A DNA stretch of 42,556 bases, taken from NCBI GenBank assembly GCA_038247045.1, contig JBBRVK010000001.1:1-42556 (forward strand). The letters are read 5' to 3'. This document shows, piece by piece, positions 6,108-42,556 of this stretch. The stretch comes from Minisyncoccia bacterium. GTDB lineage: Bacteria > Patescibacteriota > Minisyncoccia > Phycocordibacterales > UBA9973. Under the pieces are notes generated by a model. That model was not told the DNA's origin and searched no databases. It saw nothing but the letters and a program-made list of their open reading frames with translations. Made by a program: the position numbers and the translations under genes. Each line of letters opens with the position of its first letter. Position 1 is the stretch's first letter.

Positions 6108-6118
6108 CGTCACTTCAT

Positions 6119-6212
6119 AGAAGATACTATTTTTGAGGTCTTCGGTTCGCTCGTGCAATATCGTATTTCAGATAATAACGAGCTCAACCAGACCATAAAA
6201 ATAGTATCTTCT
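6119..6212 (+). repeat. Intercistronic long hairpin, family member 1 (dnaK-dnaJ gap), with a nested insertion hairpin
   Basis: Arms AGAAGATACTATTTTT (6119-6134) and AAAAATAGTATCTTCT (6197-6212) are perfectly complementary. Core GAGGTCTTCGGTTC (6135-6148) and CCAGACC (6188-6194). Inner GCTCG/CGAGC stem at 6149-6153 and 6179-6183. Confidence 0.65.
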
Positions 6213-6227
6213 ATTGTTACGTTTATG

Positions 6228-8933: not shown

Positions 8934-10025
8934 TTATTTTATATATCCCTTGCTGACCAATAATTCTGCGTTTAATATTCCTCCACCAGCAGCTCCACGG
9001 ACAGTATTGTGACTAAGGGAAATAAACTTGTAATCAAAAATATTACAATCTCTAAGTCTTCCAACCGTCACTGCCATACCTTTATCATTATCTCTATCTT
9101 TTCTAGGTTGAGGACGATTTTCTTCCTCGGTATAAATTATAGGACAAATAGGAGCAGAGGGGAGTTTTAATTCTTGAGGAGCAGATTTAAATTCACGCCA
9201 AATTTTTATAATATCTTCTTTGTTTGGTTTTTTATCTTTGAATAAAATATTTACACAGGCTGTATGTCCATCTATTACTGGAACTCTAGTGCAAGTTGCT
9301 GATATAGCAATATCTTTGTTTGTGATAAATTTATTATTTTTAATATTGCCTAATATTTTTAGAGGTTCATTTTCAGTTTTTTCTTCTTCACCTCCAATAT
9401 AAGGAATAATATTATCAATCATATCAAGACTTGGTACCCCAGGATATCCAGCACCAGAGACAGCTTGAAGGGTTGTAATGATTATTTTTTTGACAGGGAA
9501 TCCAGCTTTTTGCAAGGCATAAATTGGAGTTAAATAACTTTGAAGACTACAGTTTGGTTTAACAACAATAAAACCTTTATTCCAAGAATGTTTTTTCATT
9601 TGTGATGGTAATATTTCTAAATGATCGCTATTTATCTCAGGAACAAGCATTGGAACATCGTCTATTTGTCTATTGGCGGAAGCGTTTGAGACAACAGGGA
9701 AGCCTGCGGCGGCATATTTTTCTTCCATCTCTTTTACTAATTTTTTATCAGGTAATTCAAAGGCTGAAAAAACAAAATCGCATTTATTTTTAATTTTATC
9801 TATATCTGCGACATCCTCCATAATAATTTTTTTAACAGAGTGTGGTATTGGGGTTGCCATTTGCCAGCGATTTTTAACTGATTCTTCATAAGTCACTCCT
9901 GCAGAATTAGCTGAAGCTGCAAGATAAACAACAGAAAACCATGGATGATTTTCTAAAAGACGAATATAATTCTGACCCACCATACCTGTTGCACCTAGAA
10001 TTCCAACTTTAAATTTTTTTGCCAT
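8934..10025 (-). CDS. asd: Aspartate-semialdehyde dehydrogenase
   Basis: 363 aa. GATGMVGQ Rossmann N-terminus, active-site KPNCSLQ, and TCTRVPVIDGH. Confidence 0.9.
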   Translation of the reverse strand: MAKKFKVGILGATGMVGQNYIRLLENHPWFSVVYLAASANSAGVTYEESVKNRWQMATPIPHSVKKIIMEDVADIDKIKNKCDFVFSAFELPDKKLVKEMEEKYAAAGFPVVSNASANRQIDDVPMLVPEINSDHLEILPSQMKKHSWNKGFIVVKPNCSLQSYLTPIYALQKAGFPVKKIIITTLQAVSGAGYPGVPSLDMIDNIIPYIGGEEEKTENEPLKILGNIKNNKFITNKDIAISATCTRVPVIDGHTACVNILFKDKKPNKEDIIKIWREFKSAPQELKLPSAPICPIIYTEEENRPQPRKDRDNDKGMAVTVGRLRDCNIFDYKFISLSHNTVRGAAGGGILNAELLVSKGYIK

Positions 10026-10040
10026 TGTATTTCTTCAGAA

Positions 10041-10106
10041 TTAAAATATTGTTTTCTTTATAGTCTGGTGAGTTGAACCGAGGACTTAAAGAAAATAATA
10101 TTTTAA
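10041..10106 (-). repeat. Intercistronic long hairpin, family member 2 (lysC-asd gap). This is the minimal copy
   Basis: The minus strand reads TTAAAATATTATTTTCTTTA-AGTCCTCGGTTCAACTCACCAGACTA-TAAAGAAAACAATATTTTAA. The arms pair over about 24 bp with one mismatch and one bulge. Confidence 0.65.
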
Positions 10107-10112
10107 TGTAGT

Positions 10113-11450
10113 TTATTTAATAAATTTTTTATAAATAGCTTTAACGACCTTGTTTATATTATCAGTTCTAATAACTGCCTCCATCCGATAACAATTTTCA
10201 TAATAGAATGCACTTATCAATAAATCTGTTTTAAGTTTAACTAATAAGTCATTAAAATTACTAACATCTTTGGCATGAAACCATCCAACTAGAAATACCA
10301 TACTTGCATTGACCATTTCTATTTTATTTACTTTGCCTTTCAATTCCTCATACACTTTATCTAACTGACCATTACTATTATTAGCTACTAATTGTAAGCT
10401 ATACCTGGTATTACTAATTAATGTTATTTCAACTTTATATTTAATAAAAATCTCGCTTACCATTAAAAGTAAATCATTTACTTTAATATTTTCATCAGTA
10501 ATTAACAATAAACTTAGATCTTTTTTTAAACTTACAATTTTAGCTCCTTTTTCTTGTTTTTTTATTAAACCTACCTTTGTATTTTTTTTAGGGTCTGAAA
10601 TAGAGGCTATTTCTATTGGTGTTTTAAACATTTTCACATATTGAATAGCTTTATCATGAATGATTTTTCCTGATTCTTCGGCTTCTAAATAGCTAATTAT
10701 TGGAATCGTTTCTGCCTCGGGTACTATTTTAGGATCAGCGGATAAAACACCACCAACATCTTTCCATAAAATAATTTTTTCAGCTTTTAGAGCTGTTCCA
10801 ACAAAGCAAGCTGTTGTGTCTGTACCACCTCTACCAAGAGTCGTTATTTCACCTGTGATAGTTTTACCTGTAAAGCCTGAGATAACTACAACATCATCTA
10901 TTTTAGATAATTTTTTATTAATATTAACTTCAGAAACTTGATATACAATATTAGCATTCTTAAAATTATTATCTGTAATAATAGGTATTTCTTCCGCTAG
11001 GATTTTTTGAGCTTGAATTCCTGAGGCATTTAAATAATGAGTAAGTATTATTGCTGAGAGTTTTTCTCCATAAGCGACAACTTTATCTTCAAGATCATTA
11101 GAAATATTTTTTTTATTATTTAAATCTTTTTCTAGATTTTCCAAATTCTTTAATAATTCTAATTTTGTTTTTTTTTGCAAATCAATATCTAAAATAAGGT
11201 CGTTTATTATTTGCTCATGCTTGCTGAATATATCTGATATAAATGTTTTAATTATCTCAGCGCTATAATTTTCTTTTAAATTATTTAAGAACAGGAGTAT
11301 ATAATCTGTCATTTTTGGCATTGCCGAAACAACAGCAATAGATTGATAACCTCTGGTTGTTTGCTCTTTGATTCTTTTTTTAATAACAGGAATAAGGTCT
11401 TTTGTTAAAATTCCACCTCCAAATTTATTAACAATGATTTTTTTATGCAT
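10113..11450 (-). CDS. lysC: Aspartate kinase
   Basis: 445 aa. NKFGGG N-terminus, the GRGGTDTTA motif of the amino-acid kinase family, and a C-terminal ACT-like region. Confidence 0.85.
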   Translation of the reverse strand: MHKKIIVNKFGGGILTKDLIPVIKKRIKEQTTRGYQSIAVVSAMPKMTDYILLFLNNLKENYSAEIIKTFISDIFSKHEQIINDLILDIDLQKKTKLELLKNLENLEKDLNNKKNISNDLEDKVVAYGEKLSAIILTHYLNASGIQAQKILAEEIPIITDNNFKNANIVYQVSEVNINKKLSKIDDVVVISGFTGKTITGEITTLGRGGTDTTACFVGTALKAEKIILWKDVGGVLSADPKIVPEAETIPIISYLEAEESGKIIHDKAIQYVKMFKTPIEIASISDPKKNTKVGLIKKQEKGAKIVSLKKDLSLLLITDENIKVNDLLLMVSEIFIKYKVEITLISNTRYSLQLVANNSNGQLDKVYEELKGKVNKIEMVNASMVFLVGWFHAKDVSNFNDLLVKLKTDLLISAFYYENCYRMEAVIRTDNINKVVKAIYKKFIK

Positions 11451-14136: not shown

Positions 14137-14157
14137 TGTAGATAAAAAGCTGCACAA

Positions 14158-14226
14158 ATTATATTATAAAAAAGTCCTCAGACGAGGGAAATAAAAAACA
14201 GAGCCAGACATTTTTTATAATATAAT
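14158..14226 (+). repeat. Intercistronic long hairpin, family member 3 (decarboxylase-ureohydrolase gap)
   Basis: ATTATATTATAAAAAAGTC (14158-14176) pairs with GACATTTTTTATAATATAAT (14207-14226), with one bulged A. Core AAGTCCTCAG at 14172-14181 and CCAGAC at 14204-14209. Confidence 0.6.
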
Positions 14227-14256
14227 ATAATTTGTTACGTTTTTAATAAAAAATAT

Positions 14257-23651: not shown

Positions 23652-23719
23652 ATTGGGTTATTCTTTTATTGATGATTTAGTGAACCAAACCGAGGACCTC
23701 AAGAAAATAATAATCCAAT
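23652..23719 (-). repeat. Intercistronic long hairpin, family member 4 (dnaB-recR gap)
   Basis: The minus strand reads ATTGGATTATTATTTTCTTGA-GGTCCTCGGTTTGGTTCACTAAATCA-TCAATAAAAGAATAACCCAAT. The arms pair at 18 of 21 positions. The GGTCCTCGGTT core is present, but there is no CCAGAC. Confidence 0.55.
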
Positions 23720-26468: not shown

Positions 26469-26519
26469 TACTGCTTACAAAATGACTTGTTTATAAAAAT
26501 AGATATGTTATTATAAAAA

Positions 26520-26696
26520 TATAACCTTTGATCCAGCTGACATTGGGGAGGTGAGAGAAGAAAGCCTTATGGTTATTAGAACTCTCCGTTAACTACGTAA
26601 AAGTTGTAATTAAGTAAAAAGTAGGGTGGTACCGCGATAGAAAAATCGCCCCTGCAAATTTATCAACAATGATAAGTTTGAAGAGGCGATTTTTTG
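26520..26696 (+). promoter_or_regulatory. T-box riboswitch leader of aspS (antiterminator/terminator type)
   Basis: T-box sequence AGGGTGGTACCGCG at 26623-26636. Antiterminator at 26623-26653 with a UGGUACC bulge. Competing terminator at 26641-26696 ending in GGCGATTTTTT. AGAGA at 26554-26558. CCGTTA (F-box-like) at 26586-26591. Confidence 0.85.
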
Positions 26697-26775: not shown

Positions 26776-28122
26776 ATGACACGTACATATATTAAAGATT
26801 TAAAGAATTTTATAGGGGAGACTATTAGTATTTCTGGATGGGTAGATGTTCGTCGAGATCAAGGAAAAATGATTTTCTTGGATTTTCGTGATATGACAGG
26901 TAAGGTTCAGGGTGTCATTTTGCCAAATTATATAGATACACTAGAAATTGGAAAAACTTTACGCAATGAATTTGTTGTAAAAATTAATGGTAAAGTAAAT
27001 AAAAGACCAGAAAGAAATATAAAAGAGGGAATCTTAAATGGTGATCTTGAACTTGAAATACAAGAGATAATTGTTTTAGCTGAAGCTGCTCCGTTACCCT
27101 TTGATTTATCATTAGGAGGTTATAATTTGGAATTATCAACTGAACTTGATAATAGAGCTCTAGTATTAAGACAACCAAAAATTCAGGCTATATTTAAAGT
27201 AGAAGAAACAGTTATTGATTCTTTTCGTGAATTTATGAAACAGAATATGTTTTTTGAATTTCAAGCACCTTCTATGGTTCCTGCCACAGCTGAAGGTGGG
27301 GCGGAAGTTTTTCAAATAGATTATTTTGGCAAAAAAGCATTTCTATCACAATCACCTCAATTATACAAACAGATTGTTATGTCTGCTTTTGAAAGATGTT
27401 TTTCTGTGAATAAAGTTTTTCGTGCAGAACCATCATCAACAACTAGACACTTAACAGAGATAGTATCACTTGATGCCGAAATGGCTTTTATTGAATCTTG
27501 GACTGATGTACGCGATATGGCAGAAAATACAGTTAAATATATTTTAAAACAAGTAGAAGAAAAAAATTCTGAGCATATAAAATTATTAAACGTAGAACTT
27601 CCTGTGATGATAGATAAAACACCAACGCTTTCCTTAAGAGAAGTACAACAGAAAATTTTTGAAAATTACGGTCGTGATGTTCGTGGAGAAAAAGATACGA
27701 ACGCACAAGACGAAAGAGAAATATGTGAAATAGTTAAAAAAGAGACCAATTCTGATTTTGTGTTTATCTATGGTTATCCTACTCGTAAAAAGCCATTTTA
27801 TATTTATCCAAATCCTGCCGAACCTGAATACAACGAGGGAATGGACCTTATTTGCCGTGGCGTAGAATGGCTCTCTGGTGGCAGAAGAATCAATGATTAT
27901 ACTCAAATGCAAGAACATATTAAGCTCTGGGAAATGGATTCAAGTAAAGTGAAAATGTATTTGGAAGCATTTAAGTATGGAGTACCACCTGAAGGGGGGT
28001 TTGCCTTTGGAGCAGAACGCATTACAATGCAATTATTAGGATTAAAAAATGTTCGTGAGGCTTGTATGTTTCCAAGAGATATGAATAGAATCGATGAAAG
28101 ATTAAACGAAGAAGGCTATTAA
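26776..28122 (+). CDS. aspS: Aspartyl-tRNA synthetase, short archaeal/eukaryotic type (no GAD insertion)
   Basis: 448 aa. N-terminal OB fold (GWVDVRRDQGKMIFLDFRD), motif 2 FRAEPSSTTRHLTE, motif 3 GGFAFGAERITM. Confidence 0.9.
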   Translation: MTRTYIKDLKNFIGETISISGWVDVRRDQGKMIFLDFRDMTGKVQGVILPNYIDTLEIGKTLRNEFVVKINGKVNKRPERNIKEGILNGDLELEIQEIIVLAEAAPLPFDLSLGGYNLELSTELDNRALVLRQPKIQAIFKVEETVIDSFREFMKQNMFFEFQAPSMVPATAEGGAEVFQIDYFGKKAFLSQSPQLYKQIVMSAFERCFSVNKVFRAEPSSTTRHLTEIVSLDAEMAFIESWTDVRDMAENTVKYILKQVEEKNSEHIKLLNVELPVMIDKTPTLSLREVQQKIFENYGRDVRGEKDTNAQDEREICEIVKKETNSDFVFIYGYPTRKKPFYIYPNPAEPEYNEGMDLICRGVEWLSGGRRINDYTQMQEHIKLWEMDSSKVKMYLEAFKYGVPPEGGFAFGAERITMQLLGLKNVREACMFPRDMNRIDERLNEEGY

Positions 28123-32187: not shown

Positions 32188-32195
32188 TCAAAATG

Positions 32196-32234
32196 AGGTC
32201 CCTTACTAGTAAAATAGTAAGGGACCTTTTTATT
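32196..32234 (+). terminator. Intrinsic terminator of the sigma region-4 gene
   Basis: AGGTCCCTTACTA-gtaaaa-TAGTAAGGGACCT followed by TTTTATTTT. Confidence 0.85.
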
Positions 32235-32408
32235 TTAAAATAAATTACTAGAAAAAAAACATGGAATGCGTTATAATTAAAGGTACATGAATCTCATTAG
32301 AAACTGCGGTCGCAGTGGACAATGAGAATATAATGAATTTTAATTATTTAACTTTAATTTAGGGGGTTGGTGTTATTGAATAAATGACCACGACCTACTT
32401 CTAACAGG

Positions 32409-36368: not shown

Positions 36369-36450
36369 GCCCGAGTGGCGGAACTGGTATACGCGCACGA
36401 CTTAAAATCGTGTCTCGTAAGGGATGTGGGTTCGATTCCCACCTCGGGCA
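36369..36450 (+). tRNA. tRNA-Leu (anticodon UAA), class II with a long variable arm. No CCA is encoded
   Basis: Acceptor GCCCGAG/CTCGGGC. Anticodon stem CACGA/TCGTG with loop CTTAAAA. T arm GTGGG-TTCGATT-CCCAC. Discriminator A at 36450. Confidence 0.92.
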
Positions 36451-36498
36451 CATATTAAAAAGAGTAACTTTTGTTACTCTTTTTAATATGTGCCCGAG
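36443..36498. repeat. Perfect 26-nt inverted repeat (TTTT loop) whose left arm includes the last 8 nt of tRNA-Leu
   Basis: CTCGGGCACATATTAAAAAGAGTAAC (36443-36468), tttt, GTTACTCTTTTTAATATGTGCCCGAG (36473-36498). No flanking U-tract. Confidence 0.75.
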
Positions 36499-36627
36499 AG
36501 CAAGCAAACTGCCTTACTCGCGTGCGGGAAACGAAAAGAACCTGGCTATGTAATGACCGATAAGTGTCATCACTGTCCCACCTTGAGATTTCTTATAGGA
36601 TAATTATTTTCAAAATTTTACAAATTT

Positions 36628-36636
36628 TGCTATACT
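36628..36636 (+). promoter_or_regulatory. Extended -10 (TGcTATACT) 7 nt upstream of the gatB ATG
   Basis: ttTGcTATACTctcttatATG. Confidence 0.45.
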
Positions 36637-36643
36637 CTCTTAT

Positions 36644-38060: not shown

Positions 38061-38279
38061 ATGGAAATTAAACTTGGAAAATACAAACATTATAAGGGCT
38101 TCATTTGTAAAGTTATTGGTGTAGCAAAACATAGTGAAGATCATAATCAGAAATTAGTTATTTATTATCATCCAGATGAAAGTGGTAATGATCAGCTTTG
38201 GGCTCGACCAATAGAGATGTTTAAAGAGGATGTTGAAGTAGGAAATTATAAAGGTCCAAGATTTGAATACTTTGAATAA
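38061..38279 (+). CDS. DUF1653-like small protein
   Basis: 72 aa. The YKHYKG...VIYYH...LWARPIEMF pattern is typical of DUF1653. Confidence 0.55.
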   Translation: MEIKLGKYKHYKGFICKVIGVAKHSEDHNQKLVIYYHPDESGNDQLWARPIEMFKEDVEVGNYKGPRFEYFE

Positions 38280-38308
38280 AAAATTAAGTAGTCCGACTAC
38301 TTAATTTT
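38280..38308. repeat. REP-like palindrome, left copy (centre C). It also has a bidirectional terminator shape
   Basis: AAAATTAAGTAGTC-c-GACTACTTAATTTT. It lies between the DUF1653 stop and the RayT-like stop. Confidence 0.7.
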
Positions 38309-38944
38309 TTATTCAAATTCTACTTCCTCTTTTCTTTTTAATGTTTCCGTCCATGAATATTTTGCAAATTCAAAATATTCATTTTTATTTTTAAAATTTG
38401 ATAAAATTATTTCTTTATTACAGATACCGTTAATATTTTCTTTTTGATATTCACAAAGGCTTGACTTGGTTAAATCTGAAATTAAACTTAAATCGCTATT
38501 CATGTTATTAAAATTAACATAAGCACTTAAGTTTAAAAGATAGTTATTATTTTTAATAATTTTTGATTTAAATTTTCCCTGAAAAAGAACGCCAGATCTT
38601 TTATATTTCTCATTAAAATATCTAGTATAGCCTCCGATTCTTTGCATAAACTTTTCAACACCACACTTAACAAGAGGAGATAGTATTAAATGAAAATGAT
38701 TTTCATTTATACAATAAGCAACAATAGATACTAATTTTTGAGTAGTTGGAGTACTCAATTCTTTAAATTTATATTTTTTTAAATTTTTTAAATAAATACT
38801 TTTTATTGGTTCTTCGACATTAAATTCAATGATACTCTGAAAAAATCTTTGTAAGTCTAAGCTGTCTAAAATAACATCTCTTTTGTCAGAACCTCTATTG
38901 TAAATATGATAATACTCTCCAATTTCAAAAGTATGATTTCTCAT
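38309..38944 (-). CDS. IS200/IS605-superfamily Y1 (HUH) tyrosine transposase of the REP-associated (RayT-like) type
   Basis: 211 aa. YHIYNRG, the HUH motif NHFHLIL, FNEKYKRSGVLFQGKFKS, and a candidate catalytic Tyr in LSAYVNFNN. Confidence 0.75.
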   Translation of the reverse strand: MRNHTFEIGEYYHIYNRGSDKRDVILDSLDLQRFFQSIIEFNVEEPIKSIYLKNLKKYKFKELSTPTTQKLVSIVAYCINENHFHLILSPLVKCGVEKFMQRIGGYTRYFNEKYKRSGVLFQGKFKSKIIKNNNYLLNLSAYVNFNNMNSDLSLISDLTKSSLCEYQKENINGICNKEIILSNFKNKNEYFEFAKYSWTETLKRKEEVEFE

Positions 38945-38960: not shown

Positions 38961-38969
38961 TGTTTTTTT

Positions 38970-38996
38970 AAATTAAGTAGTCGGACTACTCAATTT
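38970..38996. repeat. REP-like palindrome, right copy (centre G), inverted relative to the left copy
   Basis: AAATTAAGTAGTC-g-GACTACTCAATTT. Its reverse complement equals the left copy except for one base. Confidence 0.7.
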
Positions 38997-39025
38997 TTTA
39001 TTTTTTTTGTTTTAATAGAATGAAA

Positions 39026-41737: not shown

Positions 41738-42427
41738 ATGACAGAAGTTATACCAGCAGTATTAGCTAAGGGTTTCAGAGATTTACATGATAAAATTGCA
41801 AGAGTTGCAAGTGTTGCAAACATGGTGCAAATAGATATTTGTGATGGAAAATTTGTTGACTCTATTTCTTGGCCAATGGACAGAGATGATGAACAAAGTG
41901 TAAAAGCTATCTTAGATGAAGAAGAAGGTCTTCCTTCTTGGGATACAATCGATTTTGAATTTGACCTTATGGTTATGAATGCATATGAGAATTTTGATTT
42001 CTTTCTAAAACTAGGACCCCGAAGAGTTGTTTTCCATTTTGAGGCCCAAACAGACCCTATTAAATTTAAAGAATTCTTGGAAGGTTTAGATGTGTATACC
42101 CGTGATAGTATTGATATTGGGATTGCTATAAATACCACTACTAATATTGATGATATTAAATATATTATTAATAATATTGACTTTATTCAATGTATGGGGA
42201 TAGAGCATATCGGACATCAAGGAGAACCATTTGACGAAAGAGTCCTTAGTCAAATAAAAGCTATCAAGAGTGAATATCCTGATATGATTGTTAGTGTTGA
42301 TGGTAGTGTGAATGAGGATACTGCCTCACTACTTGTTGAAGCTGGGGCGGATAGGATAATTATTGGTTCTGCTTTAACAAAAAGTTTTGATATTCGCGAA
42401 ACTATGAGAGAGTTAGAAAATCTTTAA
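41738..42427 (+). CDS. rpe: Ribulose-phosphate 3-epimerase family protein
   Basis: 229 aa. QIDICDGKFV, VVFHFE and VDGSVNEDT...AGADRIIIGSAL match the Rpe TIM-barrel motifs (DxMDGxFVPN, HxE, DGG...GSA). Confidence 0.75.
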   Translation: MTEVIPAVLAKGFRDLHDKIARVASVANMVQIDICDGKFVDSISWPMDRDDEQSVKAILDEEEGLPSWDTIDFEFDLMVMNAYENFDFFLKLGPRRVVFHFEAQTDPIKFKEFLEGLDVYTRDSIDIGIAINTTTNIDDIKYIINNIDFIQCMGIEHIGHQGEPFDERVLSQIKAIKSEYPDMIVSVDGSVNEDTASLLVEAGADRIIIGSALTKSFDIRETMRELENL

Positions 42428-42431
42428 TAAT

Positions 42432-42556
42432 ATGGAAACTATAAATGATATTAAAATAAAAGAGCTAGAAATAAAGGCAAACGAAATCCGTAAGTCTATT
42501 GTTAAAATGCTTTATTTGGCAGGCTCAGGTCACACTGCAGGAGCGCTTGGTATGAC
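42432..42556 (+). CDS. tkt: Transketolase, N-terminal part (5' fragment that runs off the window)
   Basis: ATG at 42432. METINDIKIKELEIKANEIRKSIVKMLYLAGSGHTAGALGM contains the SGHxG thiamine-diphosphate motif region. Confidence 0.7.
   Translation, partial: METINDIKIKELEIKANEIRKSIVKMLYLAGSGHTAGALGM

Follow-up and report, generated by a model that had tools for sequence, protein, structure and literature searches.

Probable membership of four intercistronic hairpins of a Minisyncoccia bacterium in a dispersed family of palindromic repeats

The stretch of DNA analyzed here (42,556 nucleotides of contig JBBRVK010000001.1 from a Minisyncoccia bacterium, hereafter the window) holds one long hairpin in each of four gaps between co-directional genes, and the four share an asymmetric apical core. 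The question raised by this arrangement is whether the hairpins are RNA structures selected in place or copies of a repeat that moves. A first-pass annotation, made from the sequence alone, favored selection for a structure over recent copies of a mobile repeat. The analysis reported here suggests a different answer. The four hairpins are probably diverged and partly decaying members of a large non-autonomous palindromic repeat family of the Paceibacteria/Parcubacteria, and what they resemble is selfish DNA of the type of REP, RPE and ERIC repeats, more than a set of RNA structures each built for a function. The genomes of bacteria of the candidate phyla radiation are among the smallest and most compact known and are usually called repeat-poor. 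Dispersed palindromic repeats are apparently undescribed in this group; the literature on repeats, terminators and RayT yielded no description of such repeats in Patescibacteria.

The four window copies

All four hairpins were present where the first-pass annotation had placed them, at 6117-6214 (+), 10040-10107 (-), 14158-14226 (+) and 23652-23719 (-), and domain matches bore out its identification of the flanking genes (Hsp70/DnaJ, AA_kinase/Asd, Orn_DAP_Arg decarboxylase/arginase family, and DnaB/RecR). The units and their parts are as follows.

6108..6221, + strand: copy 1, dnaK-dnaJ gap, a full imperfect palindrome with its hairpin at 6117-6214
6117-6141 / 6190-6214, + strand: arms of copy 1, around a core at 6138-6193
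10040..10107, - strand: copy 2, lysC-asd gap, with arms at 10040-10060 / 10087-10107
10063-10085, - strand: minimal core of copy 2, 23 nt, GTCCTCGGTTCAACTCACCAGAC
14145..14244, + strand: copy 3, decarboxylase-arginase-family gap, with its hairpin at 14158-14226
23652..23719, - strand: copy 4, dnaB-recR gap, a degenerate relic with imperfect arms

The shared core GTCYTCRG is well supported in the window, where it occurs five times against 1.45 expected, and four of the five occurrences lie inside the hairpins. The longer string GAGGTCCTCGGTTC, with up to three mismatches allowed, gives five window matches against 0.75 expected. A DNA-uptake sequence was considered and rejected, as the 8-mer is not spread through coding DNA and only one of its five window matches is outside the hairpins. 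In copy 1 the core consists of GGTC paired with GACC, TTC opposite A, GGTT paired with AACC, and then a long apical stem, GCTCGT..ACGAGC. CCAGAC closes three of the copies, as had been described. It is missing from copy 4, which retains an intact 5' core half, GAGGTCCTCGGTTT (23687-23700), but in which the closing 3' CCAGAC has decayed to CTAAAT. The annotation had interchanged the core strings of copies 3 and 4: the copy at 14158 reads AAAAAAGTCCTCAGAC, and the copy at 23652 reads TCTTGAGGTCCTCGGTTT, without CCAGAC.

The folding that had been proposed for all four copies was upheld for copies 1 to 3, with RNA folds far below their dinucleotide shuffles (z of -11.3 with dG -46.6 for copy 1, z of -8.4 for copy 2 and z of -6.3 for copy 3), but not for copy 4, whose z of -0.9 means that it folds no better than chance. 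Copies 1, 2 and 4 are of type T polarity (T-tract/core/A-tract) and copy 3 is of type A polarity (A-tract/core/T-tract). The arms of copy 3 (gcTGCACAAATTATATT..AAAAAA / ATTTTTT..ATAATTTGTTACG) are those of a canonical type A element of subfamily i, and its core (14174-14209) is an AT-enriched form of the RAAC4-type apex. A single mismatch in copy 2 reads A.C on the mRNA strand and G.U on the opposite strand, and the + strand of this copy folds at -27.3 kcal/mol versus -20 kcal/mol for the mRNA strand.

Two statements about the window copies needed correction. The absence of a following U-tract is true of copies 1, 2 and 4, which are followed by A-rich sequence, but not of the core of copy 3 (..CCAGAC-ATTTTTT), and this matters because A-tract/core/T-tract is the build of most copies elsewhere, in a pattern scan that required those tracts. 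The arms had also been called different in every copy. Their sequence does vary, but the arms of copy 3 (CACAAATTATATT.. / ..ATAATTTGTTACG) are the consensus of dozens in other genomes, and uniqueness was overstated for the copies at 10041 and 23652, whose 5' halves are identical at 28 of 37 positions. A family HMM run on the window returned only the four known sites, with E values of 1.5e-14 (copy 3), 0.0016 (copy 1), 0.0031 and 1.6 (copy 4, core only). Copies 2 and 3 are also carried by an independent Logan contig (L001; fetched loci are given here by their L numbers), so those copies are not peculiar to the window record.

A palindromic family in related genomes

The closest homologues of the Asd protein (76-81% identity) are from Patescibacteria MAGs labelled Paceibacteria or Parcubacteria, including RAAC4_OD1_1. 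The window thus comes from a genome of the candidate phyla radiation and not from a member of the Bacteroidota. Its G+C content is 27-38%, and no Shine-Dalgarno sequence was obvious upstream of the start codons inspected by eye in the intergenic listing. An alignment of ten sequences showed that homology extends through the arms, beyond the apex, with the consensus gcttCACAAATTATATTCTGAAAAAAGTCCTCGGA...CCAGACATTTTTTCATAAAATAATTTGTTtCGc. A strict pattern that requires the A/T tracts, AAAGTCCTCRGA-N(8-38)-CCAGACATTTT, was found in at least 120 metagenome stretches. When a looser core pattern was combined with an arm-pairing test on all fetched DNA, 129 copies (a count that pools contigs without correction for shared ancestry) had 14 to 20 of 20 possible arm pairs beside the core, versus never more than 11 of 20 in a reversed-sequence control; arm complementarity was bimodal, and the control yielded no false positives. 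L004 alone, a 21-kb piece of RAAC4_OD1_1, held four copies, two of which came to light only with an HMM built from the collected copies, and where the family is present its density is roughly one copy per 5-10 kb. Contigs classed as viral gave one exact pattern match only, at L188:9753-9803 (-) in IMGVR_UViG_3300001533_001295 (IMG/VR). The copies found in related genomes and the bimodal arm test agree with the earlier proposal of a genuine family with a conserved asymmetric apex.

The unit is an imperfect palindrome of 95-125 nt, and 105 of 116 unique copies fit one ungapped register. From the outside inwards it has an outer stem of 2-3 bp, AT-rich arms of ~20-27 bp, the core and the apex; the core measures 23-57 nt, and the median extent of the arms to either side of it is 28 nt. 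The commonest subfamily has a 3x3 internal loop in which TTC lies opposite TTC. Within the core, GTC/GAC is invariant and is followed by CTC opposite a single A and then by GG/CC. The arms are plain inverted repeats without a palindrome of their own, and they occur in at least four sequence subfamilies and in both polarities. It is the central core and not the arms that is conserved, and the ends of the unit are its least conserved part.

Apex modules are wholly different between classes. The commonest is a purine-rich apex (GAGGGAGGACGAGGAG) that is found in the 53 copies of the 32-nt core class and forms no consistent hairpin. Other apices are several unrelated hairpins at the same position, GTCCGTCGCGACGGAC and GGGTCGCTTCACGGCGACCC among them, and a bare 9-nt loop is shared by the core class of window copy 2, L046 and L072. 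In the 45-nt apex class, visual comparison of two competing pairings gave clear support to neither as a single fold, so reliance is placed only on the apical hairpins that differ between classes.

The elements match no named RNA family, which agrees with the first reading of the motif. In Rfam 15 (gathering score or E <= 1), tRNA was the only family that the window matched at the gathering score; its sub-threshold matches (T-box, PyrG leader and mir-2797) all lie away from the elements, and the search of L004, L005 and L061 gave no relevant match. Several other motifs were tried and rejected. These were a tRNA-like reading of GGTTCAACTCACC (ARAGORN finds only tRNA-Leu, and the stem is unlike a T-arm), a K-turn (no tandem G.A pairs follow the 3-nt bulge), a hammerhead-like reading of CGGATGAGG...GTC (which lacks the GAAA box and stems I/II), and an integron attC site (the hairpin bases do not fit the R''/R' boxes, RYYYAAC / GTTRRRY, and the flanking genes are housekeeping genes). 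No integrase was noticed among the window ORFs scanned against Pfam, which were a minority of the ORFs.

For each of the four window gaps there is at least one relative in which the gap is empty. The dnaK-dnaJ gap is empty in L002, the decarboxylase-arginase gap in L002, L046 and L007, and the dnaB-recR gap in L007; L004:4052-4158 occupies the same gap as copy 3. The lysC-asd gap holds a family element in L002, L004 and L005, a different long hairpin in L061 and a different GC-rich hairpin in L008, and it is only 2-25 nt long in the other seven relatives. The hairpin in L061 belongs to a second palindrome family (family B, described below), so that this one gap contains the main family (family A) in four genomes and family B in another. 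The gap upstream of dnaK likewise has family A in L004 and family B in L005.

Three filled/empty pairs show an insertion that comprises the whole unit. L184 is filled where the same two genes overlap as TAATG in L084/L102, and in L141 compared with L136 the insertion stops just outside the outer GC pairs. L106 is filled where the window is empty (42391-42446, reading TAA-TAAT-ATG), and TAAT is on both sides when the site is filled. The flanks in these pairs are only ~70-85% identical, and independent insertion and loss both fit. No clean target-site duplication was seen among the filled/empty pairs, the one possible case being this TAAT, in AT-rich DNA. With regard to the features of a MITE, inverted arms are present, duplication is limited to the possible TAAT of that one pair, and neither the window nor the loci yielded a parent insertion sequence.

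Two copies are in frame within genes. One is in a Pfam-supported SAM-dependent methyltransferase ORF (L080:10026-10124, +), where the homologue in L166 is 20 residues shorter at the site of the copy and the net insertion of 60 nt corresponds to the core plus one arm. The other is in a Pfam-supported class-V aminotransferase ORF of L116 (~9229-9260, numbered on the + strand), with the element on the - strand, and the Pfam match is split in two. The copies encode stretches such as ..FSGPRMREDEEPDHEK.. and ..FSRSSDEGGRGARPLK.., and both have the T-tract/core/A-tract polarity. The elements thus split translationally coupled gene pairs, and two copies add ~20 residues to enzymes.

An apex identity of at least 0.8 was found for 56% of same-locus pairs of copies versus 19% of between-locus pairs. 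The window copies are dissimilar from one another (0.2-0.39) and are therefore old. Decay is visible in copy 3, whose apex is AT-eroded, and in copy 4, which has lost half of its closing helix. An orthologous copy shared by L004 and L005 is 90% identical, compared with 69% at third codon positions of lysC and 58% at those of asd, which could reflect either purifying selection or homogenization between copies. The dispersal of the family in many copies, its presence and absence at orthologous gaps, the apex classes shared within contigs and the two in-frame copies all argue against the initial preference for a selected structure over a mobile repeat.

Maintenance of the palindrome and effects on transcripts

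The observation that the arms change yet stay complementary proved to be general. Among 38 diverse copies 84.8% of arm cells pair, versus 56.3% when shuffled and 35-49% with a slid partner. Double-sided arm changes in the same copies number 315 against a shuffle mean of 104, and the covariation score of 0.61 (versus 0.15) was attained by none of 500 shuffles. The changes are almost exclusively of the Watson-Crick type: single-side changes of the G-U type number ~8 compared to the 315 double changes, and on the GTCCTC strand G.U makes up 1.2% of cells and A.C 3.4%. In 96 of 115 copies the better fold is that of the strand opposite GTCCTC, with a mean difference of 3.9 kcal/mol. The 3-nt internal loop of subfamily i has been made perfectly paired in single copies, with either arm as the template (GCGAAAC/GTTTCGC in L152, CTTCAC/GTGAAG in L179 and GCTAAC/GTTAGC in L116), and this patch conversion is the product expected from template switching within a palindrome. 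The arms therefore point to the upkeep of a DNA palindrome and not of an RNA helix, and the reading of their complementarity as an RNA helix is not sustained.

If the elements are selfish repeats, they would spread as a folded single-stranded DNA hairpin, and the asymmetric core would be the recognition site of a putative enzyme, possibly of the HUH/Y1 type. It would be in the DNA that the complementarity of the arms is maintained, whether by a need for the hairpin in mobility or through templated correction within the palindrome. The preference for the sense orientation described below, at about 80%, could then be a survival filter, because a sense copy has its weaker hairpin on the transcribed strand and would disturb operon expression less. 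Putative RNA effects of the elements (a target for RNase III, a transcript end, or the uncoupling of translation) would be by-products.

It is also conceivable, though unlikely, that the core is the true mobile or functional unit and nucleates its own arms. A site would then be entered by the core, with or without one arm, and fold-back (template-switch) copying of the neighboring DNA would produce or correct the second arm. Such a process would account for the Watson-Crick-only covariation of the arms, for outer arms that are peculiar to one copy and extend into coding sequence or the end of a tRNA, for the presence of two arm polarities with one core orientation, and for the 60-nt insertion of core plus one arm in L080. 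In a related possibility, a protein peculiar to the candidate phyla radiation may also recognize the core in mRNA.

The position of the elements bears on any role in the transcript. They fill whole gaps, with the stop codon of the upstream gene mostly 23-40 nt before the core and the next ATG 27-40 nt after it in 53 of 79 cases. The contexts comprise 59 co-directional sense, 15 co-directional antisense, 10 divergent and 8 convergent settings. The single orientation relative to transcription reported for the window, where GTCYTC is on the mRNA strand in 4/4 copies, is therefore also the prevailing one in the larger sample (59 of 74 co-directional cases, ~80%). Copies on both strands of one contig are each in the sense orientation (window, L004 and L005), and antisense copies are not aligned with the majority gene direction of their contig. 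This suggests that orientation follows the local genes rather than the contig majority and that a replication-linked bias is unlikely; replication direction was rejected as the source of the bias because the copies on both strands follow their own genes. A promoter in the 3' arm was also rejected, as TAAAAT-like boxes shift between arm subfamilies and sigma-70-like matches are not above shuffles.

These positions would suit a cis-acting operon RNA, that is, a processing, stability or attenuation signal or an insulator between cistrons that is selected on the transcript and is either recognized by a host protein through the asymmetric core or cut in its arms by RNase III. The sense bias, the sharp spacing to the next start, the conservation of the asymmetric core across many genomes, the apical hairpins of unrelated sequence at one position, the conservation of the element beyond neighboring synonymous sites and an arm length sufficient for RNase III substrates are all consistent with this. 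However, such a role is improbable for elements that are absent from all four window gaps in one relative or another, that also occur in divergent, convergent and antisense settings and that can lie in frame within genes. The mRNA strand is the worse-folding one in those 96 of 115 copies, G-U pairs amount to ~1% of cells with ~8 single-side versus 315 double changes, and the commonest apex (the 53 copies of the 32-nt class) has no consistent hairpin. In addition, window copies 3 and 4 are decaying and no Rfam family matches the elements.

The RayT-like gene, known repeats and neighboring structures

The window contains a candidate for an enzyme of the required type, a RayT-like gene whose protein matches Y1_Tnp, and it had been linked to the hairpins in the first-pass annotation. 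The gene and its flanking hairpins are as follows.

38309-38944, - strand: RayT-like gene
38271-38317 and 38963-39000: hairpins flanking the RayT-like gene, an inverted pair reading TAGTAGTC(C/G)GACTACTA

Homologues of the protein are widespread in Paceibacteria and are often labelled RayT (JGI). The gene is single-copy and syntenic, lying between the genes gap and gatB, and it is in the same place in L185 and L186 (~9930-10705); this is typical of domesticated RayTs. Mobilization of the elements as REP/REPIN repeats by this Y1 transposase would thus have a suitable protein, and asymmetrically bulged hairpins are the type of substrate used by HUH/Y1 enzymes. However, the gene is bracketed by its own, different short hairpins, of which the downstream one overlaps the stop codon. 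The flanks in the window and in L185-L187 read AAGTAGTC(C/G)GACTACT, which is not the GTCYTC core, and L185 has the compensatory variant GTAGTT-C-AACTAC. This GTAG hairpin was found nowhere else in 184 loci, and the family lacks a GTAG tag. Additionally, L185 and L186 both have the gene, yet 20 kb of each contained no member of the family, and no Y1 gene adjoins a family element in 748 kb of element-bearing loci. Mobilization by this protein is therefore doubtful. As its flanking hairpin is not dispersed, the RayT-like locus looks like a 'REPtron' without a dispersed REP family, a situation that has been described (PMC3733652). The asymmetric core is nevertheless a concrete candidate substrate for this orphan, syntenic RayT-like protein of the lineage.

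Comparison with REP and REPIN elements and their RayT proteins (PMC3733652, PMC3116915) shows both likenesses and differences. Both are abundant extragenic palindromes that are mostly just 3' of genes and are probably transcribed, and intragenic copies are known. A REP unit is a stem-loop of 20-40 bp that has an unpaired tetranucleotide at one end as its tag (GTAG or CGTC, with TGTC and CCTC as variants) and a CCA-like tail (PMC3733652), whereas the family unit is 95-125 nt long, contains no GTAG and apparently has no unpaired CGTC tag. The family core begins GTC-CTC-GG and ends CC-A-GAC and so contains CCTC-like and CCA-like strings, but these are located within the GTC/GAC helix instead of terminating a short stem. 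Some REP dimers are reported to lie within long palindromes (PMC3733652), which is a precedent for a conserved center within longer arms. A REPIN consists of two inverted REP palindromes with a spacer and folds into a single long hairpin, unlike the plain arms found here, and the repeat flanking the RayT-like gene differs from the dispersed family.

Ordinary (bidirectional) intrinsic terminators, alike only through the AT-rich style of the genome, are very unlikely: most copies elsewhere do have an A-tract, GC core and T-tract (in a search that required the tracts) and true window terminators have the same A-tract/stem/T-tract look, but three of the four window copies are reversed (T-tract before and A-tract after, which leaves copies 1, 2 and 4 with no U-tract on either strand), the core helices of copies 2 and 3 are weak (-1.9 and -5.5 kcal/mol), the sites include operon interiors such as dnaK-dnaJ, divergent promoter gaps and ORFs, and 30-100 nt in common across loci and genomes indicates homology and not style. 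The earlier view that these are not canonical intrinsic terminators is thus supported, as a consensus terminator scan flags 0/4 window copies and a GC stem with a direct U-tract was not found except for the GAC-ATTTTTT of copy 3. The majority type A elements do resemble bidirectional terminators or the paired DNA-uptake sequences of Neisseria and Pasteurellaceae in having an A-tract, GC stem and T-tract and in reusing a conserved sequence at many gene ends. The family differs from these in that window copies 1, 2 and 4 are of reversed polarity and that the core is asymmetric and not a simple inverted pair.

As repeats of the selfish kind, the elements are closest in behavior to the Rickettsia palindromic elements (RPE) and to ERIC/IRU and Correia. 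RPE are palindromic repeats of ~100-150 bp in a small AT-rich genome, they are found between genes and in frame within genes, as in L080 and L116 here, and no associated transposase is known. They belong to a different phylum, and the likeness meant here is one of description. The most conserved part here is the asymmetric GC-rich apex with its swappable module, and the arms occur in several subfamilies and two polarities, neither of which is like RPE.

ERIC/IRU of enterobacteria and Correia/NEMIS of Neisseria are imperfect palindromes of ~100-150 bp in transcribed intergenic regions of operons. These elements are co-transcribed, and orientation-dependent effects on mRNA and cleavage by RNase III or RNase E have been reported. 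ERIC is also best conserved at its center. However, ERIC and Correia have unrelated sequences and hosts, and Correia has conserved terminal inverted repeats and a TA target duplication, whereas the ends of the present family are its least conserved part. The parallel to RPE in an unrelated reduced-genome lineage offers a way into the question of how selfish DNA survives when genomes are strongly reduced. In practice the elements are useful as markers for typing strains, and they probably cause breaks in the assembly of genomes from metagenomes.

Family B, the second family of long intergenic palindromes in the same genomes, has a core unrelated to that of the main family and similar AT-rich arms. 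Its copies include the following, plus those in about 20 more loci.

L004:14340-14515, - strand: family B
L005:14354-14500, - strand: family B
L005:16443-16548, - strand: family B
L003:5438-5550, - strand: family B
L061:9881-9979, + strand: family B
L061:13874-13983, - strand: family B
L061:15978-16075, + strand: family B

At least 25 copies of family B are in the fetched loci, with none in the window and no Rfam match. The apex is three-way, with two small hairpins whose loops are conserved (TACT and CGTC/CGAC) and whose stems covary; on the opposite strand the first loop reads AGTA/GTAG. Family B is sometimes in the same gaps as the main family, and in some lineages at least two families of ~100-nt palindromic repeats fill about one gap per 5-10 kb. 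The arms of window copy 1 (AGAAGATACTATTTTT / AAAAATAGTATCTTCT) resemble family B arms (AAAATAGCTCTTCTT / AAAGACTATTTT) from the same dnaK-dnaJ gap of L003 and L005, with the order swapped, and this swap is the one that separates the two polarities of the main family.

Other structured sequences were noted in the window. At 36369-36498 a perfect 26-bp palindrome (36443-36468 / 36473-36498) comes after tRNA-Leu(TAA). The tRNA 3' end (acceptor strand and discriminator base) makes up its outer 9 bp, and the downstream arm therefore repeats the tRNA 5' end. This looks like a terminator hairpin that was extended outward by copying of flanking DNA. A sub-threshold match to the T-box leader (48.8 bits against a gathering score of 93, E = 7.7e-08) lies at 26519-26656 (+), in a 535-nt gap upstream of the ORF at 26776-28122. 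Two long gaps, at 32188-32408 and 36500-36643, fold strongly and have further structured sequence upstream of the next gene, and one of them holds a hairpin resembling a terminator, GAGGTCCCTTACTA..TAGTAAGGGACC, with a weak match to the PyrG leader (E = 0.22).
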